From Bacteroidota bacterium (GTDB lineage Bacteria > Bacteroidota > Bacteroidia > Chitinophagales > Chitinophagaceae): a stretch of 64,000 nt of DNA. This document shows positions 14,909-47,383 of this stretch, in pieces. Position numbers and translations under genes: made by a program. Location of the stretch: the NCBI GenBank assembly GCA_023391015.1, contig JAEWBT010000047.1, forward strand, positions 8,119 to 72,118, read 5' to 3'. Within the stretch, counting starts at the first letter, position 1, and the number at the start of each line of letters is the position of its first letter. The notes under the pieces are model-generated. The model did no database searches and had not been told where the DNA came from. It saw only the letters and a program-made list of their open reading frames with translations.

Positions 14909-14924
14909 GGAGTTCTTAAGATTT

Positions 14925-21200: not shown

Positions 21201-21656
21201 CAATTCCTTGCGGCTGCGCTTCACGGGGTCGCCGGTAGGCAACAGGCTTTCATCAAAAGCACCCGTGGGCGTATGGCTCCGGCTGTAGAGGCGTACTACC
21301 CACTGCGACAGGTCAAAAAGGATGCGCAACGCCGCCAGAGATTCCTGCTGGGTAACGGGCGTGCTGCTATGCGCCGCGAGATTGCCGGTTCTACGCAGCA
21401 GGTGCAGGTTGCGCAGCAGGGTAGGCGGCAGAATTTCCGTAAAGCTTTTTTCATACATCAGCGAAGCGAGGCCTGTGTCGGCAGGTAGCGTCAGGTCGCT
21501 GTCATTGTCATATAACCAACTCACCCAAGCTTCCAGGTTTTTGCGGCTCAGAATGGCACTGTACACCGGGTCGGTAAACACATATTGCTCGGCCTTGCAG
21601 GCATCAGGGGCCAGCGCGGCAAATTCCGATTGTAAAAAGTTGAAGTTGGAAGCCAT
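18267..21656 (-). CDS. hsdR: type I restriction enzyme R subunit with N-terminal DUF4145/HEPN-like domain
   Basis: KADYVLWGDD...AVVEAKK (HsdR_N nuclease core), MATGSGKT, IIIDEAHRS, an EcoEI-type C-terminal region, and N-terminal LRRTGNLAAH. Confidence 0.85.
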   Translation of the reverse strand: MASNFNFLQSEFAALAPDACKAEQYVFTDPVYSAILSRKNLEAWVSWLYDNDSDLTLPADTGLASLMYEKSFTEILPPTLLRNLHLLRRTGNLAAHSSTPVTQQESLAALRILFDLSQWVVRLYSRSHTPTGAFDESLLPTGDPVKRSRKELEALRAQYEDTRQQLERANKALQQNEAARAALEARLEAVQAAKQRNRNTAPAFSASLSEAETRRLYIDVMLKEAGWDVSAPNVCEYPVVGMPRNSGNGKADYVLWGDDHVPLAVVEAKKTTADVEKGKRQAELYADCLEKMHGRRPVIFYTNGFETMLWDDASGYPPRQVLGIYSKDELERLVNRRSLRQSLMSAPINTAIVERYYQKAAIQSVAERLEARNRGALLVMATGSGKTRTAAALVELLTKAGWAKRILFLADRNALVKQAKDAFNQHLSNFPAIDLTKEEDDGSSRIVFSTYPTMMNRIDRVRPEGRRFYGVGHFDVIIIDEAHRSVYQKYRALFDYFDALFIGLTATPKADGDKDTYELFGLEVHNPTYAYELEQAVQDRYLVPPKALPIPLKFPRQGVKYDELSEEDKARYEEDFMSTYGEGPEDVSSGAVNSWLFNVDTINKVLDLLMEKGQKVSGGDRLGKTIIFAKNHAHALFIEECFNKRYPHYGGKMLWVIDSQIDYAQSLIDTFSDPGNGLFRIAVSVDMLDTGIDIPEVLNLVFFKPVRSKAKFWQMVGRGTRLCPDVFGPGEDKTFFYIFDVCGNIEFFRAQVKEEEAALPMSITEQRFLIRLELVYLLQQKSRKTEGEQTLGESLIAGLQKEVNALTDDDFRVKRVLRELHIYQQPESWHSLSRIAIADLGKLASLVGNAEGSEEAARRFDLLCYRLLTEMLSSGTRIASYQQKIAAAVAGLLQKLRIPAVAAQEPLIWATQEPEFWQEASVERIENLREVLRGLIAYVETEQKRNLYTNVEDMLTGAVEESEIMTGYSPLDAYRKRIERFLRENQHHLTIHRIRTAQPITRAELEALAQMLYTLDGEQQAAINLEDITKGKSLAAFIRGLLGMDINAAKEAFGEFLQTDRFSSTQIHFINTIINALCKNGMIDRGQLFESPFINFSHEGLSGVFADNEAKRVIEILDGLNESAMQEVA

Positions 21657-21801: not shown

Positions 21802-21852
21802 AATTTCAACAAATCGCAACAGAATCCAATTCTGTTGCGATTTGTTGAAATT
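21802..21852. terminator. perfect 24-bp inverted repeat with 3-nt loop (terminator or operator between the PIN-like gene and hsdR)
   Basis: AATTTCAACAAATCGCAACAGAAT-cca-ATTCTGTTGCGATTTGTTGAAATT. It overlaps the stop codon of the PIN-like gene and lies about 150 bp upstream of the hsdR start. Confidence 0.6.
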
Positions 21853-22396
21853 ATGGCTTCGAGGCCATGAAATCTATATTTCGGCAAGTATATCCGGCGA
21901 ACTTAGTTACCGGCAATCTTGAGCCTGCTGATAATACCGCTGTGATAAAAGCATCGCAACGGGCTTCATCAAACAAGCCAGCCGCAACTGCCTGGCATAG
22001 AAAATCCATCGTTGTCAGGTAGTCTATGTGGTGGAGCTCGCAATAGTGCTTGGTGTCTTTGAGGTTGCTGCTTGCCAGAATATTCTTTTGATAGCGCGCT
22101 ACCGCAAGACAAGCACTTTCGCCATCGCCTTTAAAAAGGTTCTTCTTAATGGAGAAATATTCCCGCTTGATTTCTTCGTTTTCTTCCGGGAAAGCCATGA
22201 GTTGAATACGCTTCTTGGAGAGCAGATGAGACAGCTTTTGCATCATGGCTATCCGTTTCCAGTTCTGCAATTCCCTGTGCACTTTATCCAGCATCCGTAT
22301 CTGGCAATCGGGAAAAATCAGGTGAAGAATCTCTTCCTCTCCCGCGCTGATAAAATGGGAGACGACATCCGCATCAATCAAGATAGTCCGCTTCAT
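21851..22396 (-). CDS. PIN-like nuclease domain protein (DUF4411-like)
   Basis: 181 aa with acidic residues in PIN-like positions (ILIDADVV, GDGESACLAVA, SSNLKD). Its start overlaps the end of the ImmA gene. Confidence 0.55.
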   Translation of the reverse strand: MKRTILIDADVVSHFISAGEEEILHLIFPDCQIRMLDKVHRELQNWKRIAMMQKLSHLLSKKRIQLMAFPEENEEIKREYFSIKKNLFKGDGESACLAVARYQKNILASSNLKDTKHYCELHHIDYLTTMDFLCQAVAAGLFDEARCDAFITAVLSAGSRLPVTKFAGYTCRNIDFMASKP

Positions 22397-23135
22397 CTGA
22401 TTGAGATTCTAAACCGGAAAAATCTACGCCCAAATCATGAAGCAGTGCGTAGTAGTGACTCTGCGAAATAACCTCCTTGTCGTACAAAGTGCGGGCGAGG
22501 CTGCCATAGCCGCCAATCACCACGTCATTGTTTCCCGGCTCATATAGGCTGGTGCTGTAACCGTGTTCCCATGCACTGCGCCGCACGTTTTGCAAAAAGA
22601 CTGCTTCATCGTCTTTGTGAATAAGTTTCCGCTCGCGTAAGCGGCGCACCAATACGCGGCGGCTACAGGAATACAATTGTTCAATGTATAGCAGTGTTCG
22701 GAGCGTAACCCGACCCGCGCGCAGATCTTCGTCGGGAACGTGCATCAACAAGCCGTCTTCCGGCAGCAGCAGATAAGACGCAAAAACATCGGCCTGATAT
22801 TCTACTGGATCGGCTTTCTTGTTAAACCGTTCTACGTAAGAAACCTGGCTGGTAAAATTGGGCTGCACATACAGATGATACAGTTCATGGCAAATCGTGA
22901 AGTGCTGCTTGCCGAGCGACTGATTGCTGTTCACGAGCATAAAACGCCAAAAATCGTCGCCGTCAGGCCTTGCTATCTTCAGCGCCATGCCTGAAAAAGC
23001 ATCCGACAGTGGCTTAAAAACCGTGAGGACACCGCGCTTCTGTAACAGGCTTTTGAGCCGGATAGGCTCGCTGTTGTTGAAGCCACATTCCAACCGAAAG
23101 TGAGCGGCTTCTTTTTTCAACAGGTCTTCATTCAT
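22374..23135 (-). CDS. ImmA/IrrE-family zinc metallopeptidase
   Basis: HFTICHELYHLY contains the HExxH motif. Its start overlaps the preceding XRE gene by 8 bp. Confidence 0.8.
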   Translation of the reverse strand: MNEDLLKKEAAHFRLECGFNNSEPIRLKSLLQKRGVLTVFKPLSDAFSGMALKIARPDGDDFWRFMLVNSNQSLGKQHFTICHELYHLYVQPNFTSQVSYVERFNKKADPVEYQADVFASYLLLPEDGLLMHVPDEDLRAGRVTLRTLLYIEQLYSCSRRVLVRRLRERKLIHKDDEAVFLQNVRRSAWEHGYSTSLYEPGNNDVVIGGYGSLARTLYDKEVISQSHYYALLHDLGVDFSGLESQSDEADYLD

Positions 23136-23481
23136 GCGGCAGCGCTTTTTTCATGTCCACGTAGTTGCGGACGATTTTCTTAAAGGCGGCAATGCTGGGA
23201 AGATCTTCCGCTTTCAAATCTTCGGCGCGAAAGGCGAAAGAAAGGTTTACGCTTTGCGCTGCTGAATCTTCTTCATAGAAGTCATATTCATGAATGCAGA
23301 ACAAAGCGGCAGCCTTACTCAGTACGGCACTAGGAACTGACCGTTTACCATTTTCGTAATAGCTGACTTCTTCGCGGTTAACGCCTAGATAATTTGCTAG
23401 TGCTTCTTGGGTGAGGCCGAACCGTTGCCGGTACTGCGCTAAATTCCGGCCAACGATGGGATTGAAGGTTGTTGTGGCCAT
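23128..23481 (-). CDS. XRE-family HTH regulator
   Basis: FGLTQEALANYLGVNREEVSYYENGKR. The ATG at 23481 is preferred over the longer ORF-track start. Confidence 0.8.
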   Translation of the reverse strand: MATTTFNPIVGRNLAQYRQRFGLTQEALANYLGVNREEVSYYENGKRSVPSAVLSKAAALFCIHEYDFYEEDSAAQSVNLSFAFRAEDLKAEDLPSIAAFKKIVRNYVDMKKALPHE

Positions 23482-23607
23482 AAAAAGGAGGGAGTGCTTT
23501 GCGGTAATGTACCGTGATGTACGGCACACTACCGTGTTACAAAATTAGACCACTTTCTGAGATTCCAAAGTTATTGTAACAGCAAACCACAATTTTTTTT
23601 ACACAAC

Positions 23608-24753
23608 CTATGGATGCGCAAACACCCGATGTAGCAGGCTTTGGAACAAGGCCTCGCTTTTGGCTGCCGCTTCTTTTACCAATGCCTTCTGCCGCTGAAT
23701 GTTTTGCGCGATTTGGGCAAATTGAGTTTGAAGGGAAAGGGGTGGGAAGGGGATTTGAAGGTTTCTAATGATGCTTTGGTTTAAATTAGCCATTGTTACA
23801 CCTTGCGCTTTCTTCTCCAATTCCCTTTTAATCTCCTTGCTCGACAGAACCAATAGTAAGTAAACAGAGTTTATGTTGTTTGGCCTAACAAACAAGGAGC
23901 CAGTTCCACACATCCAACCATTTTCGCGTTCAGTTACTAAGGCACACCTTCCCATTTCTCCTCTTCTCCCCATAATAATATCTCCTTCTAAAAGACGATA
24001 GTTATCTAAAGAGTTAGCTTTTTCAGGTGTTATGGAAAACTCCCTGTCTTCGCAAATCAATGACGCGCGAATATGCATAGGATTTATTAGAGGAATGCCA
24101 CCATCTACATAGTCTTCTGCGTGAAGTTGTGTGCCGAATGGACCAATCTGTATAGTAGAGTTCGTATCACCCAGCTTCTTTACTTCCCACCCCTTTTCAT
24201 TCTTCACCGGGTCGCCGAAAAGGTGGTGGAAATTGCTTTGCAGCAGGGCATCATACTTTGCCAATAAGGCTTTGTCTTTCTGGCGCACGGCATCCGCCGC
24301 GTCCAACAATGCCGCTATTTTTTGCTGGGCTGGAAGCGGGGGCAAGGGGATTTCTAAGTCTTTTACTACGCCTGTTGTAATAGCAGAGAAGGTTGAACCT
24401 GTGCCTTGCTGAGAAAGTTTTGGCTCTATATGCTTGAAGTAATAATAAGCGTACTTGGGATGAATTGAGCTCCCTGAACGGATAGCTGCCAAACCTCTGC
24501 CTATACAACTCTTAGTATCGCAAATGTTTGTAGGGCCAACTGGTGCCCTTACAGAGAGAAGTATATCATCTGGAAAGGCAATTTTATTAGGTGTATCGCA
24601 CCACATTCTGACCTTAGGAAAATGCACGCCAAAGTCGGCTTTCCCTTGAAAGAAAGGTAATCCATTCCCCTCATTATTATAAGTTGAAGAAGGTGGAGAC
24701 TGCCCGGCAATTACCTCACATACTTCCCCCAACCGTACTTTTTCCCACCTCAT
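23608..24753 (-). CDS. hsdS: type I R-M specificity subunit
   Basis: Two TRD halves each followed by a conserved helix (PLPPLPAQQKIAALLD and PFPPLSLQTQFAQIAQ). The ATG at 24753 overlaps the hsdM stop (ATGA). The longer ORF-track extension is an artefact inside hsdM. Confidence 0.8.
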   Translation of the reverse strand: MRWEKVRLGEVCEVIAGQSPPSSTYNNEGNGLPFFQGKADFGVHFPKVRMWCDTPNKIAFPDDILLSVRAPVGPTNICDTKSCIGRGLAAIRSGSSIHPKYAYYYFKHIEPKLSQQGTGSTFSAITTGVVKDLEIPLPPLPAQQKIAALLDAADAVRQKDKALLAKYDALLQSNFHHLFGDPVKNEKGWEVKKLGDTNSTIQIGPFGTQLHAEDYVDGGIPLINPMHIRASLICEDREFSITPEKANSLDNYRLLEGDIIMGRRGEMGRCALVTERENGWMCGTGSLFVRPNNINSVYLLLVLSSKEIKRELEKKAQGVTMANLNQSIIRNLQIPFPPLSLQTQFAQIAQNIQRQKALVKEAAAKSEALFQSLLHRVFAHP

Positions 24754-26237
24754 CCGACCAGCTCCTCCACAGCGCTTTCCTGCAACAGGTTTTCCAATTC
24801 CTGCAAGGCTTCGGCCCGCTCGGCGTCTAAAGCACGGATCTGGGCCATCAGGGTTTCGGGCGTTTCGTGGGCCACGGCTTCGTGTATCACTTCTTTGTAG
24901 CGGTTGATACTGAGGTCGTAGCCCTGCGCGCGGATGTCGGCCACCGGCACGGTAAAGCTTTTGGCCGTGCGTCCGCCGTTTTCGGGCTGGCCATTGTTCC
25001 ACTTCGCAATCACATCGGGAATGTCGTTTTGCGCTACGGGCTGCCGCTTGTCGTCGAGGCTCAAGCCGTCGGCGGTCATGTCGTAGAACCACACGTCATC
25101 TGTGCCGCCTGTGCCGGTTTTGGTAAACAAGAGGATGGCCGTGCTGACGCCCGCGTATGGCTTAAACACGCCGGAGGGCATAGAGATCACGCCCTGCAAG
25201 CGGTGGTTGTCCACCAGTTCGGTGCGGATTTGCTTATGCGCCTTGCTGGAGCCAAAGAGCACGCCGTCGGGCACAATCACCGCCGCGCGTCCGCCCACCT
25301 GCAAGCCGCGCAGAATGAGCGCCAGAAACAGCAATTCCGTTTTCTTGGAATCGGCCATGCGGAGAATGGCTTTGTCCACCGCGTCTTTATCGAGCGAGCC
25401 GGTAAAAGGCGGATTGGCCAGGATGAGCGAAGCCTTGTTGGTAAACGCCGCATTGGCCTCCGAGAGGGCGTCCACATCGCGCAGGCGCGGCTCTTCAATG
25501 CCGTGCAAAATCATGTTCATGGCCCCGATGCGAATCATTGTTGGGTCGAACTCCATGCCGAGGAACATATCGGTGGCGAAATGTTTCCGGAAATCGGCAT
25601 CGTGAAACGCGTCGGCGTGGTGCGTATGGAGGTATTCGGCAGCACCCACCAGAAAGCCGCAGCTTCCGGCACTCGGGTCGCAGACGACGTCGGTGGTCTG
25701 CGGGCGCATCAGCTCCACCATCATTTGAATGATGTGGCGCGGCGTGCGAAACTGGCCATTTTGACCGGCGGTGGCAATCTTGCTCAGCAGGTATTCATAC
25801 ACGTCGCCTTTGGTGTCGCGGTCGGCCATCTGGATGTCCGAAAGCATATCCACCACCGCTGTGAGTAGGCGCGGCGTAGGAATCATGAACACCGCGCCTT
25901 TCATAAAGCGGCCAAAAGCGCTGTCGGCGCTGCCATAGGCCTTCATAAAGTCAAAGACGCCGTTTTCTTTGGTGAAGAGGCGGAACATGCCCTCCGGGTC
26001 GAGGTCTTTGAAGGTACTCCAGCGCAGGTCTTTTTGTTCGGGCGTGAAGATGGGGTTTTCTATCGGCGTACCGAGGAGCGCCGCTTTCTTTTCTTTCGCG
26101 GTTTGCAGCTCATCGAGCCGCTTGATGAAGAGCAGGTAGGTGATTTGCTCAATAACGGTGAGCGGATTAGAAAGACCGCCCGTCCAGAAGGTATTCCAGA
26201 TGCGGTCGATGTCGGCGCGGAGGGAGGAGGGGAGCAT
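24750..26237 (-). CDS. hsdM: type I R-M N6-adenine DNA methyltransferase
   Basis: HsdM_N region, motif I VCDPSAGSCGF and motif IV ILANPPFTG. Confidence 0.9.
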   Translation of the reverse strand: MLPSSLRADIDRIWNTFWTGGLSNPLTVIEQITYLLFIKRLDELQTAKEKKAALLGTPIENPIFTPEQKDLRWSTFKDLDPEGMFRLFTKENGVFDFMKAYGSADSAFGRFMKGAVFMIPTPRLLTAVVDMLSDIQMADRDTKGDVYEYLLSKIATAGQNGQFRTPRHIIQMMVELMRPQTTDVVCDPSAGSCGFLVGAAEYLHTHHADAFHDADFRKHFATDMFLGMEFDPTMIRIGAMNMILHGIEEPRLRDVDALSEANAAFTNKASLILANPPFTGSLDKDAVDKAILRMADSKKTELLFLALILRGLQVGGRAAVIVPDGVLFGSSKAHKQIRTELVDNHRLQGVISMPSGVFKPYAGVSTAILLFTKTGTGGTDDVWFYDMTADGLSLDDKRQPVAQNDIPDVIAKWNNGQPENGGRTAKSFTVPVADIRAQGYDLSINRYKEVIHEAVAHETPETLMAQIRALDAERAEALQELENLLQESAVEELVG

Positions 26238-27125
26238 TTACTTAGTGAGCTTTGTTGACGCCCAGGCAAAGGTATCTGCGAGGCCGAGGGCGAGTCCTAT
26301 AATTGTATTGTGAGTAGGGTAGTCAGCAATTGCGTTAGCGGCTTGTGGTGTATGACTACCGTATGCACTGGCTATTTTGCGGATAGCCGTGAGATTGCTG
26401 TGAACATGAACGGGAATGTCTTTTTGGTCAGACAGATATTGAACGACATCACCCAAACGACTTGCCTGGGTTTTGATAATTCCAGGGCTGCTTCCTAAAT
26501 AACCATCATAGAGCAAATCCGCTAGATGTTCGGCGCAGCGACGAAGCGCGCTTAGAGAGGCAATCCGATCTTCAATCCTGAAAGACGTGTATTTATCGTT
26601 TTTGAAGAGATTACTGACAACTTCTAAATCGGCTTGGGCAAAGTGGGCATCTACAAAACCAAAGATTTCAGGGTGTGCAAATCTGATTTTGGCATGGTCA
26701 GAATCGTTGTAGGTGTCCCAGATGTGCTTTAGGAGACTTTGTTCATCACCTTTCTCAAAAATGGGACATTTTACAGCATTACCTCCTAACCGAAGATTTA
26801 TATCTGCGAATCCAGTATTGATGCAATGAGGGATGTGTAATTTTTGTTCGTACTCCAGTTGTTGAAGCTCCCGAAAAATACGAAATAGGTTTACCTCGTC
26901 TTCTGTCCCTTCTTGCTGTCCCTCTTGATTATAGGCGCGTGCATCGAGCACTAGAAACTGATATCTACTTGGCTTAGTTTTAAGTCGTTCTAGGAGGTCA
27001 TCCACGTTATCAACCTGTTCTGTGATAACACGACTTTTTTGAGCGAGAAGTCTAAAGCTCGCAGCATAATCAGGTTTGTCTTCGTAAAGAAGAATGCGAA
27101 TTGGTTTGGCTTGTTCTGTGCTCAT
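26238..27125 (-). CDS. receiver (REC)-like domain protein with uncharacterised ~150-aa C-terminal domain
   Basis: IRILLYEDKPD (acidic pair), FLVLDARA (candidate phospho-acceptor Asp), INTG and VKCP match CheY-like beta1/beta3/beta4/beta5 positions. Its start overlaps the kinase gene stop (ATGA), and its stop abuts the hsdM start. Confidence 0.5.
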   Translation of the reverse strand: MSTEQAKPIRILLYEDKPDYAASFRLLAQKSRVITEQVDNVDDLLERLKTKPSRYQFLVLDARAYNQEGQQEGTEDEVNLFRIFRELQQLEYEQKLHIPHCINTGFADINLRLGGNAVKCPIFEKGDEQSLLKHIWDTYNDSDHAKIRFAHPEIFGFVDAHFAQADLEVVSNLFKNDKYTSFRIEDRIASLSALRRCAEHLADLLYDGYLGSSPGIIKTQASRLGDVVQYLSDQKDIPVHVHSNLTAIRKIASAYGSHTPQAANAIADYPTHNTIIGLALGLADTFAWASTKLTK

Positions 27126-29869
27126 GGCAGAAGGATTTTGAATCGAACCTTAAATTCGGAATTGCCTATTTCTCTAGGCGTTGCTATAAGTATCTCCCCT
27201 TTATGACTCGCTACAATACGTTTGGTGTGAAAACCACCGAAGCCAGTTCCACCTCTTCGGTTAGAGGTTAGTCCTTGCGATAAAAATTGCTCTCTATTAA
27301 ATCCCTCAGGGAAGGGTGCCCCATTATTTTCTACAATGATCTCGTTATAATCTTCAAAAGATTTCCTTTTGGACAAGCGGATGTTGATTATATTAGTATG
27401 TTTAGGTGTGTCTTTTTTAAAGCCGTGTTTAATAGCATTTTCAATTAAGCGCTTAAAAAGAAGTTCCAGTTGATATCTATCACCTTCTATTTCCAGTTCT
27501 TCACCTTTGATATTTATAATGCAATTAGCGGTGCTAAATACAGGCTTGACCACTTTTGATAAAAAATCCTTCAAACTTATCTTTTCTGGCTGGAACCCCC
27601 CACTTCCAATATTCAAAATGGCCTCTGCTTTTGACAAAGTGCTTTGTGCTTCTTTGACAGCTGATTTCATTCTTTCTATAATTGTCTGAAGTCGGAAGCT
27701 AGAAAGTTCCTCCTCGCCTTGTCCTGGTAATGCTTCCACAGTTAGATCAGTCCAGTTAATAGGATGCTGGGTATTTACCTTTTCTTCTAGAAATTCTTGT
27801 AAAGAGTTTATATCCATTCCTAAAGTAGAAACTGGCTGTTTAATTTCATGCTTCAAAGTAGCAATGACATTGTATAAATCATCTTCGCGCTGCTGTGCAT
27901 TAATTTGTTGTTCTACTTGAAGCTTTTTTCCGTAAAAAGAGGCAACGAATTTGCGCTGCTCATCTAAAGAAAGCACTTTAATTCTCACTTTTAATAAGTC
28001 TGCCTTGCTAAAGTGAGGGACACCTATATTGTGACGAATTGTCTCTATCTGCTTTAGTACTTCTTCGCTCTCCAGTTGTGTAATAAGGTATTCTGGAAGT
28101 AGCCTCTCTTGATCAGTCGCAATAACGATGATATTAGGATTGCATAAAGCGTCACCCGTGTACTTATAAAGGGTTGGCTTAAGCTTGGTACCAACCTTGG
28201 CAATTAAGATTGCATCATTAGGAATATAGTTAGGGTTACGAGAGAGTAATTCTGGATCGGAAACAAATGAATTTGCACGGGTCTGATCAATTTCATTAAT
28301 TCCTTCCTGATCAGGTAGATCACCAACCTGAATATAGGGAATACCCTCTGTCTTATTGAGATTGCTTTTAGGAACCCCTGTGCCAGTACCCACATATTTT
28401 GTTAATTCACTCAGTGAGCTATAAGAGTCATCAAATATCTGGTCATTGAGATGACGCTTGGGTTCTAAGTTGTAGGAACCTTCAGATAATGCTTTATAAT
28501 TTACTATACCCGAATTATAAATATCCGCAACGTTTTTTCGAAATGCGCTAACTATATAGCTACTTTTTTTCTCGAATTCATCCATCGAATAAGATGATCC
28601 GTCAAGCATAAAAATGCCATCTGTATGCTTACCTAACTCTATGATTAGCACTGAGCAAGCCACAGATGAAAAGGGTTTAAAACTATCCTTTGGGAGTGAG
28701 ATAATTCCCTTAAGTAGATGGTTTCGCACCAAATACTGACGAATAATAGTGTAGTCTTGTTTTGTACTAAACAAAAAGCTGTCTGGTACTATTAAAACCA
28801 TCTTGCCCGAAAGGTTTAGAGCAGAAAGTCCAATAGAAAGCGCAGCAAGCACACTGTCAACAGTATTTGAGTTAGAGGTAAGAAGCGGGATTGAAGGATG
28901 ACTATCCCAAAAGGCTCTTCTTGGAATAGACACTTTTCTTCCAAAGGCTGGAGAACTTATTACCAAGTCAATTTTCTCCAGTCTCTCGTTATATAGAATG
29001 GAATCTTCAGATTCGTATATAAAATCTGTACAGCCGCTGCTAAGAAGATGTAAAGCACCAAGTAAGCGTAAATTTTTATCCTGTTCAATACCAATAATAA
29101 AAGGTACGCGCTCTTTATTCTTATGAAAAGCCGCTGAGATCAATGTTCCATTTCCTGCAAATGGATCAAATATCTTACCATTGTTGCCTACTTCATAAAA
29201 CGACCCTATGAACTTAGCCAAAGCAGCAGGAACATAATAATGACCTTGCGTAAATGTCAATTCACTAATCGCCTCACTAATAAAATTGCTAAAGTGAACT
29301 TCCTCCAGAATTTCAACTTCCTGAAGCATTTCTAGAATTTGACACAATTCGGGGAGGAGTGGACCTCGAATGTCACTTAGTATTCTAATCAATTCATGAA
29401 ATACATATGGCTGATGAACTAATTCTCCAGTACTGGATAGGAGATAGAACAAATCATTCAGCTCTACTTTGCTGCTTAAATTTAACTTCACTTGGGAAGC
29501 CCTCCAAAAAGAATAAATTAAGCCGACTGCTAGAGAATTGGCTAAAGGAGAAGAGATCCTTGATTCTTTAGCTAACTCCGTAATCCTTTTATAGGCTTCC
29601 TTATAGTACACAATTGACTTGTTCGGAAGTCGTACTAAACCGTTGTTACTAACGTCAAATAGAGCTTTATAACGAGCTAATCTTGCGGTTAGTTGCGCCG
29701 TTGTAATGTCTTTTCCGTCCCTCCGGTAGTATAGACCAAGCTCATTGATTGTATCAGTAATTTCATTGAGATACATTGGCTCCTGACTACTCATGAGTAT
29801 AACTTGCACAGCTTCATGCAATGTCATTTTACCAGTCTTCTCTGGAGTCAACGGTGATTTTCTCAACAT
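27122..29869 (-). CDS. 915-aa fusion: HARE-HTH + N6-MTase-like domain (degenerate motif IV) + single TRD + HisKA/HATPase_c histidine kinase
   Basis: N-terminus: MTLHEAVQVIL...MYLNEITDTI (HARE-HTH-like). Motif I: IFDPFAGNGT. Motif IV position reads VISSPAFG rather than NPPF/Y. TRD-like middle region. H-box: ATLKHEIKQPVSTL. N-box: LIENAIKHGF. G-boxes: VENNGAPF and GGTGFGGF. No TM segment. Confidence 0.7.
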   Translation of the reverse strand: MLRKSPLTPEKTGKMTLHEAVQVILMSSQEPMYLNEITDTINELGLYYRRDGKDITTAQLTARLARYKALFDVSNNGLVRLPNKSIVYYKEAYKRITELAKESRISSPLANSLAVGLIYSFWRASQVKLNLSSKVELNDLFYLLSSTGELVHQPYVFHELIRILSDIRGPLLPELCQILEMLQEVEILEEVHFSNFISEAISELTFTQGHYYVPAALAKFIGSFYEVGNNGKIFDPFAGNGTLISAAFHKNKERVPFIIGIEQDKNLRLLGALHLLSSGCTDFIYESEDSILYNERLEKIDLVISSPAFGRKVSIPRRAFWDSHPSIPLLTSNSNTVDSVLAALSIGLSALNLSGKMVLIVPDSFLFSTKQDYTIIRQYLVRNHLLKGIISLPKDSFKPFSSVACSVLIIELGKHTDGIFMLDGSSYSMDEFEKKSSYIVSAFRKNVADIYNSGIVNYKALSEGSYNLEPKRHLNDQIFDDSYSSLSELTKYVGTGTGVPKSNLNKTEGIPYIQVGDLPDQEGINEIDQTRANSFVSDPELLSRNPNYIPNDAILIAKVGTKLKPTLYKYTGDALCNPNIIVIATDQERLLPEYLITQLESEEVLKQIETIRHNIGVPHFSKADLLKVRIKVLSLDEQRKFVASFYGKKLQVEQQINAQQREDDLYNVIATLKHEIKQPVSTLGMDINSLQEFLEEKVNTQHPINWTDLTVEALPGQGEEELSSFRLQTIIERMKSAVKEAQSTLSKAEAILNIGSGGFQPEKISLKDFLSKVVKPVFSTANCIINIKGEELEIEGDRYQLELLFKRLIENAIKHGFKKDTPKHTNIINIRLSKRKSFEDYNEIIVENNGAPFPEGFNREQFLSQGLTSNRRGGTGFGGFHTKRIVASHKGEILIATPREIGNSEFKVRFKILLP

Positions 29870-29880
29870 AGCTAAACGCT

Positions 29881-30504
29881 TTAATTTTTGTAGAAATCCT
29901 TACTTGTGTCTTCTTTATCCCGAATCTTCTGATTGAAGCGCTGGCGGGCATTGCGCTCTTCCAACATCACCTCACGTAGGCCTGCTTCGTCTTTAGAGAA
30001 CGAGATGGTGTTGGTAATAGAAATGTGCGTGGCTGCTGTTTGAACATTATGATCGGTACCGATATAGGTGAACGTCCAGCCTTTCTGTTGCAGCTTTTCC
30101 ACTAGCTTTTTAATATCGGTACGCTTCCATTCTACCGAAGCGTTTTCTTCGCCGTCGGTGAAGATGGTTACGAGTACGTTGTATTCCTTCACATCACTCA
30201 GTTCTGTGTGGAGTTTGCTGACAGCAAAACCCATCGCGTCGTAGAGTGGAGTGGAAGCGTCCGGTTGGTATTTGTTCTCGTCAATGAGAGTAGCTTCGGC
30301 TACCGGCTGACTCCACAGATGCACTTTCCGGCCAGCGCCATTGAAAGTGATAAAAGAGACGCGGTGCTCTTGTTCCGGAAACTGGGCCTCCATTGCTTTT
30401 GCCGTCTGGATGATTTCGTTGAAACTTTGGATGGTGGGCTTCTTGATGCTTTCCATGGAGCCGCTTTCGTCTAGGATAATCAGGTTATGGACAAGGTGTT
30501 TCAT
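29881..30504 (-). CDS. von Willebrand factor A (vWA) domain protein
   Basis: MIDAS motif ILDESGSM, plus STPLYD and TIFTDGEEN. Confidence 0.75.
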   Translation of the reverse strand: MKHLVHNLIILDESGSMESIKKPTIQSFNEIIQTAKAMEAQFPEQEHRVSFITFNGAGRKVHLWSQPVAEATLIDENKYQPDASTPLYDAMGFAVSKLHTELSDVKEYNVLVTIFTDGEENASVEWKRTDIKKLVEKLQQKGWTFTYIGTDHNVQTAATHISITNTISFSKDEAGLREVMLEERNARQRFNQKIRDKEDTSKDFYKN

Positions 30505-30571
30505 AAAGGTGCTGGTTTAGGCCGTTAGAAAAACAAATGTGCATGCACCTTGTGCAGCCTATTTGCACAAA

Positions 30572-31573
30572 TCAGTTATAGGCCTGTAATCCTTCTTGAA
30601 ACAAGTTGCCCATTTGCTCCCGCAGAGACGATGGGGAAAGTACCTCAATGCTAGGGCCATAGCTGAGCAAATGACTCCGCAGCTCATAGTTGTTGAAGAC
30701 GGTTAGTCGGACCGTCATGCAGTCCTCCTCTTCGGCTACAATCTCCTGTGAAGTATGAATAGGCTTGGTGCGCACATAGTAGCACTGAATCCCTTTGACG
30801 CGAATAAGAATCTCTTGCGGCACTTCTCCGGCAGGAACTGAGACGCCAATGAGGCTATGGAAAAAGCTCTGCGGGTCGAAGAGTGTGTTGGGAATAAAGT
30901 CGCAGGTAGCCGGTTTTAATTTCTGAATGCGATCAAGTGCCAGCACGGTATGCGTAGGGGAATCATCCTTCCGGCCCATAAGAAACCAACGTCCCCGATA
31001 TTCTTTGAGGAGATAGGGATGGATACACCAGATCTGTGCTTCTGCCATCTGGAAAGACTGATAGGTAATGTGAAGCGGCAGTTGTGTCCGGATGGCCTGC
31101 AACAGGTCGTCCAAAAACTGGCTACCAGAGGCCTGGATATGTTGTTCAAAAAGAATCGCAGGCGTGGTGGCTTCTGTGGTAACGGAAGCGGCGTGTTCCA
31201 GTTTTTTGATAACTGCCTCTATATCATCAATAACGACTAAGCTCCCAATTTGCCGCAGCATCGGAACAAGTTCTCGGAGATAGCTGACTTCTTCACTTGC
31301 GAGAGGTAATTTCCGGATGGAAAAGTCTTTATCGCTGTAGCTGTAATAGACCTTCCCGTTTTCCGTACGCTTCTCTAGCGGCGCGTGGAGTTCATTGACC
31401 AGATGCTTTAAGTCATTGAACAAAGTGCGCTTTGCAATCTTCTTATGCCAGTTTGCTTCTAGTTTCTCATTGACTTCCTCCAACAAAGCTTCTATGTCCC
31501 ATTGCTTGCCGAAACGTCGTAAGCATGTATCAAGCACTTCAAGACGATAGGAGAATTCTTTGGTAGCGGGCAT
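30572..31573 (-). CDS. HTH-WYL domain transcriptional regulator (BrxR/CapW-like position at the head of the defence array)
   Basis: 333 aa. WYL-type core IHPYLLKEYRGRWFLMGR, followed by a WCX-like C-terminus. Confidence 0.7.
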   Translation of the reverse strand: MPATKEFSYRLEVLDTCLRRFGKQWDIEALLEEVNEKLEANWHKKIAKRTLFNDLKHLVNELHAPLEKRTENGKVYYSYSDKDFSIRKLPLASEEVSYLRELVPMLRQIGSLVVIDDIEAVIKKLEHAASVTTEATTPAILFEQHIQASGSQFLDDLLQAIRTQLPLHITYQSFQMAEAQIWCIHPYLLKEYRGRWFLMGRKDDSPTHTVLALDRIQKLKPATCDFIPNTLFDPQSFFHSLIGVSVPAGEVPQEILIRVKGIQCYYVRTKPIHTSQEIVAEEEDCMTVRLTVFNNYELRSHLLSYGPSIEVLSPSSLREQMGNLFQEGLQAYN

Positions 31574-31742: not shown

Positions 31743-32186
31743 CTAATTTACGTCATACACTCTTCCAGAAACACCTGTCATGTGGTATGCGTAAAGTCTT
31801 CCGTTTTTCACCCCTCTGCTCAGTATCACAGAGAGCGTCTTTCGGGGATCATTCCAATTCACCAGTTTGTGATCTTTATCCCGCTGCTCTAAATGCCGCA
31901 AAATCTGCGCTGCATTCATGGGCTCGTCACCAACATCTTCAATACAGTGAACGACCTTCTCCAGCCACGTCTTGTCCTCGTAAGCAGCATCCCCCGAACG
32001 CAGGTAAGTTATTTCCTGCTTTAACTTCCCCATTTGGCTCTCAAGGCTCTGAATATATCTATTTTGCCTCTCCAGAATATCTTTCAAGACGGATACAGAC
32101 ACTTCTGCTATTTCTAATCGGTCCTTTAGAGATAGTTCTTTTGGTTTCGCACCTATTTCTGATGCGGTTTGATTTTGGTTTTCCAT
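31743..32186 (-). CDS. hypothetical protein (coiled coil + winged-helix-like C-terminus)
   Basis: 147-aa ORF with protein-like composition. No catalytic motif recognised. Confidence 0.5.
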   Translation of the reverse strand: MENQNQTASEIGAKPKELSLKDRLEIAEVSVSVLKDILERQNRYIQSLESQMGKLKQEITYLRSGDAAYEDKTWLEKVVHCIEDVGDEPMNAAQILRHLEQRDKDHKLVNWNDPRKTLSVILSRGVKNGRLYAYHMTGVSGRVYDVN

Positions 32187-32470: not shown

Positions 32471-32815
32471 TTACTGCGCTTTGTCACGCAGTTTAGCTCT
32501 GATCTGTGTTACAGAATCCTTTTTGCCTTCCTGAAGCCAAGTGTCTAACTCGCTTTTCCGGAATAATAAGCGCTTTGCCCGTTTAATGAATGGAATCTTC
32601 CGGCTGGAAGTAAAGCCATAGACGGTCTGTTTAGACAGTCTTAGGTATTTGGCTGCCTGTTCAACGTTTAAATACTCCGGCAAGGCAGCATTGTTGTCAG
32701 GCAATTCTTGTTGTGGATTTGAGTCCTGTTCGTTTTCAGGACGGATAACATCGCGTACAGTCTCTGCAATTATTTGGCGCAGCTCATCGGGGGTGGTGAG
32801 AATGATCTTCTCCAT
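32471..32815 (-). CDS. excisionase-type (MerR-like HTH_17) DNA-binding protein
   Basis: LNVEQAAKYLRLSKQTVYGFTSSRKIPFIKRAKRLLFRKSELDTWL. ATG at 32815 preferred. Confidence 0.65.
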   Translation of the reverse strand: MEKIILTTPDELRQIIAETVRDVIRPENEQDSNPQQELPDNNAALPEYLNVEQAAKYLRLSKQTVYGFTSSRKIPFIKRAKRLLFRKSELDTWLQEGKKDSVTQIRAKLRDKAQ

Positions 32816-32921
32816 AAGTCTATAAGAGGTTTTAAAGGTTCTTGGTTGTTCTCGTTTTGAGAAGGCAAAGCTGAACCTCATATGGCCCCTCGACCTATAG
32901 GGCAGGTCACCCAAAAATTTC

Positions 32922-33764
32922 TTACTGATCCGTAATTTCTTCCTCGCCCTTTTTTTCTCTTGCTCTGATTTTTTGGGTTAAATCGCTATTCTCTGCTAGT
33001 ATTTCTTTGAAGATCGGTTGATCTTTGAAAGGCTCTAGGCAATCCCTTACAAACTTTAAATCCTCTAAGCTGTATTTTGTTTTGGAGGCAGGTAAAGCAT
33101 CTCTATACCCGTTATATAGTGAGCTTTTGTTCATAACCACATTACCCTTCGTATTGACAGGAGGTGTCTTTGCGGAGAGTAAATGCAGTAGCCTAGCGAT
33201 ATCTGTTTTGGATGCGGAATTGGCCTTTAGTATTTGACCAAGAAGTAAATAGAAAGCATAAGACTGCTGCTTAATCGTGTACTCCCGTTTCGCTCCCTGT
33301 TTTTGTTTAGGCACCACCGTAGCAGTGGTTGCCTTTGATTGTTCGATAGGCAGAGAAAGGAGTTCCTTTTCCAGAAACGAGCATATTTTTTCTTTAGTTA
33401 GGGCTTCCTTTATTCTTTCTTTGAGCTGAAGAAAGTGATCCTCTGTGATTGCTTCTGTATTAAAATACTCTTGCAAAAAGTCAACTGCCTCAGTAACGAT
33501 TCCAGAGTCGTCTGAAAGTTGGTCGCCTATATTTTCTCCTCTCTCTTTCCGTATCTGGTTGTAAAATTCAATGAGAGCTGGGTTAGCACCCTTATACTGC
33601 TTATACAGCTTTTTAGCAAAAGAGGCCCTTTGTCTTACTGTCTTTAAAAGATAGTCGTCCTTGATTTCTTGAAGGGTATTTTTTACAATACCTTTTAGCT
33701 CCCTCTCTAAGTCATTTATTATCTGAATAGAGTTTCGGTAGATTTCAAGGTTGCAGAGTGACAC
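32922..33764 (-). CDS. hypothetical protein
   Basis: 280-aa ORF with a GTG start, so the start is uncertain. No recognisable motif. Confidence 0.45.
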   Translation of the reverse strand: MSLCNLEIYRNSIQIINDLERELKGIVKNTLQEIKDDYLLKTVRQRASFAKKLYKQYKGANPALIEFYNQIRKERGENIGDQLSDDSGIVTEAVDFLQEYFNTEAITEDHFLQLKERIKEALTKEKICSFLEKELLSLPIEQSKATTATVVPKQKQGAKREYTIKQQSYAFYLLLGQILKANSASKTDIARLLHLLSAKTPPVNTKGNVVMNKSSLYNGYRDALPASKTKYSLEDLKFVRDCLEPFKDQPIFKEILAENSDLTQKIRAREKKGEEEITDQ

Positions 33765-34238
33765 AGGAGCAGATGATTTAAGTAGCTCAAAATAAGTATC
33801 AGGCAGTCATTGCGCCAAATTGCATATCGCTCATACTGCTCTAAATGTCTTCGGTGTTCTTTTTCTATTGGTCTTTGCAGATCTAGCCTTTTGTATCAGC
33901 ACCCAGAATGTGCTAGTTCTCTTTGTCTATAAGCTTGTAGAGCGTGCTACGGCCCTATATTTTGTTCCGGCTTTTGGTAAATATTTGTTCCCACATGCCG
34001 GATTTGAAGCGCAATTCGACACCGTCGTAGTGGTGAGGTTTTACGAGTTGTACCGAATGGTAATGACCAGTGGAGGTAGGGAAACTGCTCTTGGTAATCG
34101 TCATCGCTTATTCCTCATTACGCAGGGGTATAAGTCCAGACTTTGGAGACGGTGCAAATATATTTGTTATTACTGAGAAGCAGCAAAAAGTTCAGGACTC
34201 TCATTAGGTGGTAAAACTCTGTAAACATGGGCTACCTC

Positions 34239-35069
34239 TTAGTAAGCTTCACCTTTGTATAGGCTGCCGTTGTCAGTATATCTAATTTTTAAGTCAGCAA
34301 GAATTCTATCTTCGGGCAAGATTGTAATTTTACATGCATGATAATCATCTAACCACTTTTCATCAGTTATTGAAGCTGTAATAGCCCCTCTTTCGCCCTC
34401 TTTCAAGAATGTCCATTTGGGCTTGTCGTCAAGAAGCTCGATTCTTTTGAACTTAAGAACAGTTAGAGCCGTGTTTTCATACTGCTGCTGTCCGAGTTCA
34501 TAAAGTAATTTTGGTTTGTTTATTGAGATTGCGATAGAAAGATTAGCAACACCATCATTAGATTTATACTCAAAGCGCTCATCTACCTTTAGATTACTGC
34601 AGATAGTCTGAGCTTTTTCCAATAATATCACTAGCGCAAAGAGATTTACTTCCCCAACAATCATCCCAGCAGCTACAAGTTGCCTAGATGCCCTTTTTAT
34701 TCTTTTAAGAAGAGCATCAAGTTGTCTCCTTGTTAAAATCTCCCTTTCTCCTTCAAGCCAAGCAATCAAATCATACTTGACGCGAACAAGGAGGGTACCA
34801 ACTAGTTTTTTCCATTCTAAATCCTTTATAGCATCATCTGGAACTGCTTTAAGCAATTGAGCGACCCTTGCTCTAATAGAACCGAACTGAACATCTTCCA
34901 ATTCATATTCAGGGGCTGCATTATAGCTAATTGATCTTAGAACGAGGCGATCAAATTCTTGCAGAAATTCACTGAACTTCTGAATTGAGTTGAATGAAAC
35001 ATGAAGGTTCTTTCTTTCCTGAAAGAGGTAAGCAACTTCAAATATCTCGAGAGGGTTTGCTGTCGCCAA
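34239..35069 (-). CDS. hypothetical protein (AT-rich cluster)
   Basis: 276-aa ORF in a strongly AT-rich segment. No recognisable motif. Confidence 0.5.
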   Translation of the reverse strand: MATANPLEIFEVAYLFQERKNLHVSFNSIQKFSEFLQEFDRLVLRSISYNAAPEYELEDVQFGSIRARVAQLLKAVPDDAIKDLEWKKLVGTLLVRVKYDLIAWLEGEREILTRRQLDALLKRIKRASRQLVAAGMIVGEVNLFALVILLEKAQTICSNLKVDERFEYKSNDGVANLSIAISINKPKLLYELGQQQYENTALTVLKFKRIELLDDKPKWTFLKEGERGAITASITDEKWLDDYHACKITILPEDRILADLKIRYTDNGSLYKGEAY

Positions 35070-35214
35070 GGACTTGTATGGTTAAATTCTGGTTTAAAAA
35101 ACAAGATTGAACGTTCTGAAACAACTTTTTTCTAGAATTATTGAGAAACCATCTTTGAGCATAGAATTTTATATTTTTGCATTATATTTAAAATCATTAA
35201 GCATGCATACTTAG

Positions 35215-35856
35215 TCATGACCGTAATATTTCTGCTAATTGCATCTTCACTAACTCAAATTCAGTATATGGCATCTCTATCCTGTTAAACTCAATTATAT
35301 CCTCTTTCGATACTTTACTGAACACAAGCGGTGGATCGCTAGATACTATTTCTGTATATAAGATAGTAACTGAAAATTGTTCACTAGAATTTATTGACTC
35401 ATGAAATTCAGTTGATTCGACAGAGTAATATTCTCCCATCTGCATCACTTGGGTAGTTTCAGGTATCAAATAGTACCTGCCTGGCAATTTTGTAAGCATT
35501 GAACTACCCTCCATATATTCAACACGAAATAATTCACCAGCATCATCAAACTGAGATTCTTGAACTTTATATGTATTATTAATAATTGTACCGTGCAGAA
35601 CTAAACTTTTGAAATTAAAAGTATGGTTATGAATTAACAGGTTGTCATCTTGCACTTTTGCATCACTTGCCCATATATGAAGACGTAGTGCGATTTGGTC
35701 TGTTACATTACCAAGACTAAAAGAATAAAAACCAAGAGGATGGTATTTTCCAACAATATTCAAGTCAGGAAAGCACTTCAAAAGAGCAATCTTTATTTCG
35801 TCTACAGGACGTTCTTTATATAGACTTTGATACAAGTTAGTTAGATGGTTATCCAT
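35215..35856 (-). CDS. hypothetical protein (His-rich beta-type core, possibly cupin-like)
   Basis: 213 aa. LRLHIW...LLIHNHTFNFKSLVLHG is reminiscent of metal-binding cupin cores, a weak resemblance. It overlaps the upstream gene by 8 bp. Confidence 0.5.
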   Translation of the reverse strand: MDNHLTNLYQSLYKERPVDEIKIALLKCFPDLNIVGKYHPLGFYSFSLGNVTDQIALRLHIWASDAKVQDDNLLIHNHTFNFKSLVLHGTIINNTYKVQESQFDDAGELFRVEYMEGSSMLTKLPGRYYLIPETTQVMQMGEYYSVESTEFHESINSSEQFSVTILYTEIVSSDPPLVFSKVSKEDIIEFNRIEMPYTEFELVKMQLAEILRS

Positions 35857-36757
35857 ATGGATTTATATCACTTTTTGCCTTAGTAATAATTTCTTCAATC
35901 TCGGTTTCGTTCACTAATGCACCGAACTTTAGTTGTTCTAACAAAGCCTTTGTCTGAGCAACGTTAATTTCATTTTTACCTACAAATTGTACCTCCATGT
36001 CTAAATTCATAACTTGACTTAGACTTTGTTTTAAGTCCTCACAATAGGCATCATAAAAAAAAGTTCCATTTTCATAGAGTAATGCGGGCTCCGCCGGGTC
36101 TTCTTTAGTGATAATTGCTGTGGAAGAAGAAATGTCGAGGCGAAACAAAGAAAAACTGTCTTTTAGACCTAATTTGATATTCAGCCGTGGTTGTTCAGCT
36201 TTCCACATATAGGCAGCAACGATCGTTGCCAGCAAATCTATTTGGACGCTTCTCATTGTTTTTCTATTTTTAGTACCTGATTTAAGGCTGTTTCTATAAG
36301 TTGCATAGCTCTCACATAACTTTTGATTGTTTGGGTTCATGATTTGAATAGCTACGTCAATTGATCGGTTCTTTTCTCTAGCAAGTGAAGCTAGAAAAGG
36401 TAAGGTTTGAGCTCTAGTATATTGGCCGCTTCCACCATTAAACCACCATTTTTCTGTATCTATTCGTGCCTTAGTCATAGTAGAGCCAATTTCTACTGGC
36501 TGAAGAATTTTCATTTGTGCATTGAGCTTGTTCTTTGGAGTTAACCAGAAAAGAAAAGTTCCTAGTCCCACTGTCACTAGTGTGCTGGTAAATAAGCCGT
36601 CAAGAATTTTATATAAAACTTCATTACTAAAATTTATTCTTTCTTGAGTCAAAAAAGGAATCAACAAATGCCTTACAAGAAATATAGCAAATAGAAGTAG
36701 AAATATAATTATGTAGAAGTATTTCCTCTGCTCCTTTGATGTTAGTTTGTCGATCAT
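35849..36757 (-). CDS. membrane protein with two N-terminal TM helices and a soluble C-terminal domain, function unknown
   Basis: YFYIIIFLLLFAIFLV and LFTSTLVTVGLGTFLFWL hydrophobic segments. 302 aa. Confidence 0.55.
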   Translation of the reverse strand: MIDKLTSKEQRKYFYIIIFLLLFAIFLVRHLLIPFLTQERINFSNEVLYKILDGLFTSTLVTVGLGTFLFWLTPKNKLNAQMKILQPVEIGSTMTKARIDTEKWWFNGGSGQYTRAQTLPFLASLAREKNRSIDVAIQIMNPNNQKLCESYATYRNSLKSGTKNRKTMRSVQIDLLATIVAAYMWKAEQPRLNIKLGLKDSFSLFRLDISSSTAIITKEDPAEPALLYENGTFFYDAYCEDLKQSLSQVMNLDMEVQFVGKNEINVAQTKALLEQLKFGALVNETEIEEIITKAKSDINPYG

Positions 36758-47249: not shown

Positions 47250-47260
47250 GATTTTACTGG

Positions 47261-47306
47261 GTCGGGACGACTGGATTCGAACCAGCGACCCCATGCACCC
47301 CATGCA
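47261..47306 (-). repeat. att direct repeat within the intact tRNA-Pro
   Basis: Identical to 537-582. Confidence 0.85.
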
Positions 47307-47335
47307 TGTGCGCTACCGGGCTGCGCTACGTCCCG
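47262..47335 (-). tRNA. tRNA-Pro (anticodon GGG)
   Basis: The reverse complement is CGGGACGTAGCGCAGCCCGGTAGCGCACATGCATGGGGTGCATGGGGTCGCTGGTTCGAATCCAGTCGTCCCGA. It folds by hand into a cloverleaf: 7-bp acceptor stem, anticodon loop AUGGGGU, T-loop TTCGAAT. Confidence 0.9.
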
Positions 47336-47383
47336 AAACTTTCCGGTAATGGGCGGCGAAGATAAACAACTTTTCCGGAAATT

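Follow-up and report, generated by a model that had tools for sequence, protein, structure and literature searches.

The subject of this report is a pair of adjacent genes in a stretch of 64,000 nucleotides (hereafter the window) from a Bacteroidota bacterium of the family Chitinophagaceae (GenBank assembly GCA_023391015.1, contig JAEWBT010000047.1, positions 8,119 to 72,118 of the forward strand). We read the pair as a cytoplasmic two-component sensor-effector cassette. The first gene encodes a soluble histidine kinase of 915 amino acids (aa), in which a HARE-HTH-like domain, an HsdM-like N6-adenine methyltransferase (MTase) domain with a degenerate catalytic motif and a single HsdS-type target-recognition domain (TRD) are fused to a complete kinase core. 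The second encodes a 295-aa protein with an N-terminal receiver domain and an all-helical output domain. The most likely function of the cassette would be defence against phages or mobile elements, a role to which we give an even chance. This reading builds on the domain architecture, the receiver fold, the conservation of residues and the linkage of the genes, and it starts from a first-pass annotation that was made from the sequence of the window alone.

The 915-aa protein was compared exhaustively with a library of 1.84 billion representatives clustered at 50% identity. At E ≤ 1e-30, 255 representatives matched; the best 150 of these are mostly about 800-1000 aa in length, and many were aligned over nearly the full length of the query. 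A word-based homologue search with the same protein returned only 4 proteins. The family is thus not rare, and that neither PADLOC nor the searchable literature covers it in spite of these 255 representatives marks a real annotation gap.

Sensor kinase

Pfam recognizes N6_Mtase at residues 204-475 and HATPase_c at residues 796-910 of the kinase, PADLOC places a type I specificity TRD at residues 485-665, and NCBIfam kinase models span residues 666-900 (E-values are given in Table 1). The HARE-HTH match covers residues 15-65 and lies under the Pfam cut-off in the window protein; among relatives, the best match to this domain reaches E 2e-8. When the family profile was compared with the PDB, the hits were solved HsdM structures (E 2e-59 to 1e-33), HsdS (1e-22) and, from the DHp domain onward, HK853/ThkA (1e-16). 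Conservation was assessed in an alignment of 39 relatives, among which N6_Mtase recurs in 39, HATPase_c in 38, Methylase_S (PF01420) in 26 and HARE-HTH in 26. No transmembrane segments were found in the 915-aa protein. The fusion of HARE-HTH, N6-MTase, a single TRD and HisKA/HATPase_c domains that the first-pass annotation had proposed is therefore confirmed by Pfam, PADLOC, NCBIfam and the PDB profile comparison, with the HARE-HTH domain weak in this particular protein.

The phosphoacceptor His674 (codon 27848-27850) is invariant in 39 of 39 relatives, and so are N811, G850, G876 and G878. The H-box KHEIKQPV, the N-box (NAIKHGF) and the G1 and G2 boxes (ENNGAPF and GGTGFGGF) are present as previously read. 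The G1 box has the form NNGAP rather than DxGxG (i.e., Asn for Asp). Since the solved sensor kinase 7zp0 shares this N-type box, aligning there with ENPGTP, ATP binding by the CA domain is plausible as judged from the sequence, and the ATP-binding region of the kinase, with its N, G1 and G2 boxes, is in place.

The conserved HsdS helix (LDEQ...) continues straight into the DHp helix that bears His674. The spacing from Q638 to H674 is 36 residues in 14 of the 39 relatives, a group that includes 11 of the 12 closest, and ranges from 30 to 47 elsewhere. A heptad-preserving linker was accordingly considered and set aside; the spacing is fixed only within the close clade and lends modest support to a rigid helical coupling. 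Because homologues begin at M15 of the 915-aa open reading frame (ORF), the true start of the kinase is probably at 29827, which would give a protein of 901 aa.

Methyltransferase and target-recognition domains

Motif I of the MTase domain reads DPFAGNG (29147-29167) and the position of motif IV reads SSPAFG (28940-28957); both motifs, noted before, translate at these coordinates. The canonical form of motif IV, (N/D)PP(F/Y), occurs in only 7 of the 39 relatives, which keep NPPF or DPPY, and the window protein has SSPAF. At the first residue of the motif the relatives differ (N in 11, D in 7, H in 7, S in 3, A in 2, others in the rest). From the established effects of mutating NPPF in enzymes of the EcoKI type, a protein with SSPAF is expected to be inactive. 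Residues of the S-adenosylmethionine (SAM) pocket are kept, namely G239 of motif I (36/39) and the acidic residue D/E262 of beta-2 (36/39).

In the close clade, mean identity is 30% in the MTase domain, 42% in the TRD and 53% in the CA domain, so that the MTase domain is the fastest-evolving globular part. This order is the reverse of that in true restriction-modification (R-M) systems, where hypervariability resides in the TRD. Because the catalytic motif IV is degenerate while the SAM pocket and the kinase residues are kept, the view that a catalytically impaired methyltransferase has been recruited as a sensor, as the first-pass annotation had suggested, is well supported by these sequence comparisons.

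A BLASTP comparison of 10 kinases with 10 HsdS proteins yielded no within-locus enrichment between the sensor TRD and the adjacent HsdS (all E > 1e-7, 20-27% identity). A specificity shared by the sensor TRD and the neighbouring HsdS was rejected on this ground, and the earlier idea that the sensor reads the same sites as the adjacent R-M system found no support, the sensor TRD being unlike the TRDs of the neighbouring HsdS.

The combination of a retained SAM pocket with lost catalysis, and of a conserved TRD that is unrelated to the neighbouring HsdS, also speaks for a guard or decoy of type I methyltransferases in which, with the wiring unchanged, the signal would be not DNA but the depletion of SAM by a phage SAM lyase or the capture of an M2S1-like groove by DNA mimics such as Ocr or ArdA, and which would fire the effector by analogy with PrrC-EcoprrI or PARIS. 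Type I restriction requires SAM, and the pair is often found inside type I R-M operons. HEPN nucleases linked to R-M, PrrC among them, are well documented (PMC3710099). This explanation is purely inferential, however; the HARE-HTH domain and the TRD argue for DNA as at least a co-ligand, and the stand-alone loci described below have no nearby R-M system to guard. We consider it unlikely, though not far-fetched.

Receiver partner

The 295-aa protein has no match in Pfam, PADLOC or NCBIfam. Its family comprises 49 clusters of proteins of about 290 aa, with organism-named members from Mucilaginibacter, Pedobacter and Sphingobacterium. An AlphaFold2 model (predicted local distance difference test score, pLDDT, 88.9) has the five-strand, five-helix alternating pattern of a receiver, followed by a helical domain, and the top Foldseek matches in the PDB are receivers (PmrA, CheY, LuxO and PorX), with a target template-modelling (TM) score of about 0.6-0.8 to isolated receivers. 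In an alignment of 17 diverse homologues, including those of six loci in which the partner is about 18-24% identical to that of the window, D16, D61, R195, E199 and W288 never change, even at 18% identity, and T104 hardly does; K125 lies at the end of beta-5. The N-terminal half, which had been taken for a receiver from its CheY-like positions, thus models as one, with its acidic residue D16 and phospho-acceptor D61 invariant. From these residues the receiver is almost certainly phosphorylatable, and the view that kinase and receiver form a genuine two-component pair is supported.

The C-terminal domain, modelled alone, gave a pLDDT of 94.7. Its top 13 Foldseek matches in the PDB are all HEPN proteins (HepT/MntA toxins, ST0689, AF_0298), albeit weak ones (E 0.3-1.1, probability up to 0.93, TM about 0.4-0.6). 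A sequence search of the domain against the PDB returned nothing under E 0.2, and a fold search in BFVD gave no informative match. DUF4145, a HEPN family, was found below threshold (E 0.012) in 2 of 28 members of the partner family. An hhalign comparison with the DUF4145 domain of the window's own HsdR gave P 0.013 and a probability of 3%, and was underpowered, the DUF4145 alignment search having yielded one protein only; the alignment is collinear, with R195-x3-E199 on the R-x3-E of DUF4145, H258 on the HEPN His and W288 on the terminal Trp. Neither the AlphaFold2 model nor Foldseek gave any DNA-binding fold in the output domain.

The first-pass annotation had pointed to LRRCAEH as a possible R-x4-H motif of a HEPN nuclease. 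It was rejected as the canonical motif on two grounds: distant homologues have N, A, S, D or Y in place of H200, and the model puts the sequence mid-helix rather than at the end of helix 3. HEPN domains have their His where helix 3 ends and the loop starts, and an acidic residue within helix 2; some HEPN families have the His without the Arg (PMC3710099). In the model, H258 (GSHTP, codon 26352-26354), which is mostly conserved, is at a helix end entering a loop, and E199 is in the long helix that precedes the helix of H258, a placement that matches the published HEPN topology. H258 is hence, on the model, a better candidate for the catalytic His than H200. The HEPN-like effector proposed earlier therefore stands in part: there is a weak fold resemblance, with a His where the HEPN His belongs, but the canonical Rx4-6H motif is absent. 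We regard a HEPN-like fold as somewhat probable and an RNase activity of the domain as a possibility a little short of even.

Operon organization and related loci

The positions of the cassette, its domains and its operon are listed in Table 1. The ORFs, their coordinates and the junctions described in the first-pass annotation were confirmed at the sequence level: the kinase stop overlaps the receiver start (ATGA), the TAA of the receiver gene directly abuts the ATG of hsdM with zero gap, and a further ATGA overlap joins hsdM and hsdS. A scan for promoters and terminators gave counts at chance level, with a scan model that does not fit Bacteroidota promoters.

Table 1. Cassette, domains and operon genes in the window; positions are those of the window, with position 1 as its first nucleotide.
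Feature	Position	Strand	Evidence and remarks
WYL-WCX regulator gene	30572-31573	-	PF13280 E 7e-12, PF25583 E 3e-11
vWA gene, MIDAS DESGSM	29881-30504	-	PF00092 E 5e-11
Sensor histidine kinase, 915-aa ORF	27122-29869	-	Pfam, PADLOC and NCBIfam matches; family profile against PDB
HARE-HTH-like N-terminal DNA-binding domain, residues 15-90	29600-29827	-	PF05066 E 2e-4
HsdM-like N6-adenine methyltransferase domain, probably catalytically dead	28445-29260	-	PF02384 E 8e-20
Single HsdS-type TRD and conserved HsdS helix (LDEQ...)	27875-28417	-	PADLOC Specificity_I E 3e-13
DHp dimerization/phosphoacceptor domain, H-box KHEIKQPV	27680-27907	-	HK853/ThkA alignment; NCBIfam kinase models
CA (HATPase_c) domain	27140-27484	-	PF02518 E 2e-9
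Receiver partner, 295 aa	26238-27125	-	AlphaFold2/Foldseek receiver
Receiver (REC) domain of partner	26706-27125	-	D16, phospho-acceptor D61 (26943-26945), T104, K125
All-alpha output domain of partner, residues 141-295	26241-26705	-	Possibly divergent DUF4145-like HEPN
hsdM	24750-26237	-	PADLOC MTase_I E 5e-178
hsdS	23608-24753	-	Type I specificity gene; coupled to hsdM
Three-gene insert between hsdS and hsdR	21851-23529		XRE, ImmA and 181-aa protein
hsdR	18267-21656	-	PADLOC REase_I E 3e-190

The block is AT-rich, as had been noted: the GC content is 0.380 in the kinase gene and 0.439 in the receiver gene versus 0.584 in hsdM and 0.533 in hsdR, with a sharp step at the zero-gap junction between receiver and hsdM (26237/26238).

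A scan of a genome collection with the kinase-domain alignment gave 4 loci and a scan of metagenomes gave 8, and the full set comprises the window and 17 further distinct loci (18), plus several short or duplicate contigs. The carriers are genomes of Mucilaginibacter and Sphingobacterium, metagenome-assembled genomes of Bacteroidales, Flavipsychrobacter and Taibaiella, and metagenome contigs. The kinase and partner genes are adjacent, and mostly overlapping, in every locus where both are visible, and about two thirds of the loci also have a WYL regulator together with type I hsdM/hsdS. The fusion is thus conserved next to its receiver partner in every locus examined and next to WYL and hsdMS in most of them.

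The order WYL-cargo-kinase-partner-hsdM-hsdS...hsdR is found in the window and in L004, L006, L007, L011, L012, L014, L015 and L016. Two loci vary it, L009 having only an HsdM_N fragment and L017 no recognized WYL gene. In L002 the order is WYL-hsdMSR-kinase-partner; L020/L021 have hsdM, two unassigned ORFs, the kinase-partner pair and a convergent WYL gene; and in L013 only a WYL gene is beside the pair. Neither WYL nor R-M genes occur within about 8-10 kb of the pair in L001, L003, L018 and L019/L024/L027, two of which have an XRE gene upstream. The first-pass annotation had described the module as wired into a type I R-M operon; this holds for the window and most loci, but the pair also occurs alone (L001, L003, L018, L019). 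Because it is present without R-M or WYL nearby, the kinase-partner pair is an autonomous cassette that is preferentially embedded in WYL/type I R-M operons.

The regulator upstream of the pair on the same strand, read earlier as an HTH-WYL protein, has WYL and WCX domains, and a homologous gene adjoins the pair in 13 of the 18 distinct loci. The gene with a MIDAS motif (DESGSM) that had been noted beside it is indeed present, but it is cargo specific to the window locus: the slot between WYL and kinase genes holds DUF2130, UCP032817, DUF4407, RmuC or nothing elsewhere. The vWA protein was therefore rejected as a part of the module.

The hsdM genes associated with the pair show 54-73% identity in 7 of 9 related loci, also where kinase identity drops to about 24%. 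In L015 the kinase is about 34% identical to that of the window and the partner only about 24%, a mismatch that indicates, at the level of sequence comparison, a shuffling of modules. Together with the GC step at 26237/26238, it points to a precise recombinational swapping of cassettes within the operon, and the compositional step and the module shuffling indicate horizontal mobility.

The HsdR of the window has an N-terminal DUF4145 (HEPN) domain of its own at residues 22-113 (Pfam E 4e-10). DUF4145 is also present in the HsdR of L017 (18151-18873); other related HsdR proteins have only HSDR_N-type N-termini. The domain could be a second RNase-like module in the operon, or the DUF4145-like receiver protein could dock on it.

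The close association with hsdM speaks for a different function, in which the pair regulates the type I R-M system: the helical C-terminal domain would bind HsdR, HsdM or the WYL protein without catalysis and in this way adjust restriction, its alleviation or the expression of the operon, for example in response to the sensed state of SAM or DNA. The receiver gene is translationally coupled to hsdM (gap 0-45 nt in most loci), one lineage of hsdM accompanies very divergent kinases, the canonical HEPN Arg is missing, the HsdR proteins of the window and L017 have a DUF4145 domain with which a DUF4145-like partner could associate, and the kinase/receiver pair of Ambrosia (see below) has been proposed to control R-M-like genes. 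The loci in which the pair stands without R-M or WYL, the lack of a DNA-binding fold in the output domain and the active-site-like conservation of R195, E199 and mostly H258 argue otherwise, and we regard such a regulator as possible yet rather unlikely.

The neighbourhoods are those of defence islands, with Druantia III, AbiEii, GmrSD, reverse transcriptases, CBASS and nSTAND, and the great majority of loci lie in defence islands or mobile elements (WYL, R-M, relaxases, integrases). This weighs against a third explanation, in which an ordinary two-component regulator, or an active MTase (orphan or type IIG-like) with an appended kinase, would serve host epigenetic or physiological regulation, as do the signs of horizontal mobility, the SSPAF motif of the window protein with the loss of the catalytic residue in most relatives, and a partner without DNA-binding output. 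The 7 relatives that could still methylate, the position of L018 and L001 among metabolic and transport genes and the failure of known defence models to match are in its favour. We hold it to be improbable.

In L019 (11909-13874), and equivalently in L024 and L027, a patatin and SMODS/DncV-like CBASS pair lies about 2 kb downstream of the XRE-kinase-partner genes, which is consistent with a defence-island setting even where R-M is absent.

Proposed function

In the mechanism that we favour, the sensor input would be an 'M plus half-S' unit of a type I methyltransferase, made up of the HARE-HTH domain, the HsdM-like domain and the one TRD, and the pseudo-methyltransferase would bind a ligand, namely DNA and probably SAM. 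Histidine kinases are dimers, and for this reason the kinase dimer could mimic the clamp of an M2S1 type I methyltransferase. Closing on the ligand, or its release, would be relayed through the HsdS helix to the DHp domain and would switch autophosphorylation in one direction or the other. The phosphate of His674 would then pass to Asp61 of the partner, and phosphorylated receivers would dimerize and pair their HEPN-like C-terminal domains into an active effector, probably an RNase. The outcome would be growth arrest or abortive infection of the infected cell. Usually co-transcribed with a WYL repressor and hsdMS(R), the cassette would serve as a second line or guard of the R-M system. The most specific version of this mechanism, in which the pseudo-methyltransferase kinase reads the state of DNA or the sabotage of SAM and restriction (by SAM lyases or DNA mimics) and signals to a receiver-gated HEPN-like RNase, is put forward only tentatively.

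Several observations weigh against the mechanism or parts of it. Instead of diversifying, the sensor TRD is conserved, and it has no similarity to the adjacent HsdS; a sequence-specific reading of unmethylated foreign DNA is for these reasons not favoured by the sequence data, and host DNA would then be a ligand too. The buffering receiver known from Detocs is missing, with no second receiver gene in any locus, and in PADLOC v2 no model matches the partner or the kinase region. The Rx4-6H motif lacks its canonical Arg, with no conserved Arg 4-6 residues before H258, and the HEPN assignment is weak (Foldseek E 0.3-3, hhalign probability 3%, Pfam sub-threshold); the output domain may be no nuclease at all. 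Lastly, two loci (L018 and L001) lie among genes of a housekeeping type.

If the sensor-effector reading is true, a DNA methyltransferase scaffold (M plus TRD) can become the sensor of a kinase, and two-component signalling gains a direct nucleic-acid or SAM input that has not been described before. Defensive phosphorelays, known from Detocs, would then include a second kind that has another sensor and another effector, and the cassette would be a concrete example of a back-up system within type I R-M operons in Bacteroidota, whose defence systems have received little study. Should the sensing of DNA or of SAM sabotage hold as well, immunity would have its first histidine kinase that senses DNA or the epigenome, and R-M a guard that works by phosphorelay. 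A degenerate MTase with an intact SAM pocket also offers a clean model for pseudo-enzyme sensors.

Surrounding island

The insert between hsdS and hsdR consists of an XRE HTH gene (23128-23529), a gene for an ImmA/IrrE peptidase of family M78 (22374-23135) and a gene for a 181-aa protein (21851-22396) that has no match in Pfam, NCBIfam or PADLOC. Cargo at this position differs between loci and elsewhere includes genes for GmrSD and reverse transcriptases. Immediately downstream of hsdR is a complete Druantia type III pair at 8918-18026, with DruH of 1033 aa and DruE of 1996 aa (PADLOC E = 0 for DruE). At 3657-8823, a gene for a 1456-aa DEAD-box helicase matching PADLOC DpdF and PsyrT (E 3e-74) is followed by one for a 264-aa protein with weak coiled-coil matches (ZorA, LmuB, SMC-like); the two are possibly another defence system.

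The gene at 31743-32186, which shares the strand of the WYL gene and directly precedes it, encodes a coiled-coil protein of 147 aa whose match to DUF6742 is below threshold (E 1e-5). A Bacteroidota-type tyrosine integrase gene (752-1972) and an HTH_17 (excisionase-like) gene (32471-32914) bracket the defence genes; tRNA-Pro and tRNA-Ser genes are found further on (47258-47336 and 54459-54542), and in related loci there are genes for a relaxase and MobC. The island has the look of an integrative mobile element. The region 32922-36757 is very AT-rich (GC 0.33-0.42) and encodes four proteins of 213-302 aa without a Pfam family. Outside the island, at 42454-43944, lies a gene for a protein of 496 aa in which a Macro domain (E 6e-49) is fused to an ADP-ribosylglycohydrolase (E 1e-73).

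Comparison with known systems

No description of the fused HARE-HTH/N6_Mtase/kinase architecture, of a receiver-HEPN protein with R-M or of a WYL regulator with a kinase was found in the searchable literature, and PADLOC describes none either; the remark in the first-pass annotation that the architecture was uncharacterized agrees with this. PADLOC does report mad2 (2e-15) for the kinase, which reflects a generic N6-MTase similarity and is weaker than the match to MTase_I; as MADS consists of eight genes with an active methylase, membership in that system was rejected.

The input region is homologous to HsdM plus an HsdS TRD with its conserved helix and keeps the SAM motifs, as in the type I M2S1 enzymes EcoKI and EcoR124I. 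It differs from these in that M and a single TRD are fused, motif IV is lost, the TRD is more conserved than the MTase domain and a DHp-CA kinase core is appended. A putative HEPN effector gene within a type I R-M operon recalls PrrC and RloC and suggests a back-up that acts when restriction is neutralized; PrrC, however, is controlled by its association with EcoprrI and by an ABC-ATPase domain in place of the receiver domain found here, and has the canonical Rx4-6H motif that is absent from the partner.

With BrxR and CapW the locus shares a WYL-WCX protein upstream of a defence operon on the same strand, for which a repressor role is predicted here as well. Among the systems associated with BrxR, 16% are type I R-M (PMC9122601). 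The Bacteroidota WYL proteins are only distantly related to the characterized proteobacterial ones.

In Ambrosia (AbrR-AbrA-AbrB-AbrC-AbrD), for which an anti-phage role has been demonstrated (10.1101/2025.09.30.679545), one cluster likewise combines an N6-adenine MTase, a histidine kinase/receiver pair and a transcriptional regulator. There, however, the MTase and the kinase are separate proteins, whereas here MTase, TRD and kinase are one polypeptide; the Ambrosia receiver has a winged HTH (wHTH) and a proposed transcriptional role, whereas an HTH is lacking in the partner described here; and Ambrosia, found in Gammaproteobacteria, has a type IV HNH nuclease as effector and an XRE regulator, in contrast to the Bacteroidota setting and degenerate motif IV of the present family. 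With a fused MTase-kinase, a partner without wHTH and no HNH gene, the cassette falls outside Ambrosia.

Detocs, in which a relay from a kinase to a receiver-effector defends against phage (10.1101/2023.01.24.525353), is alike in having a soluble kinase beside a receiver with a putative effector in place of a DNA-binding output, in its location in defence islands and in the logic by which phosphotransfer would activate the effector. Its sensor DtcA is TPR-based, whereas the sensor here is a type I MTase plus TRD pseudo-enzyme; it has a buffer receiver, DtcB, that has no counterpart here; its output DtcC is a PNP ATP nucleosidase or another known effector rather than a HEPN-like helical domain; and the pair described here usually lies within a WYL/type I R-M operon. 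The differing sensor, the absence of a second receiver from all loci and the lack of PADLOC matches place the cassette outside Detocs too. We read it as a variant of the defensive or regulatory two-component systems that are linked to R-M, with Detocs and Ambrosia as its closest known relatives.

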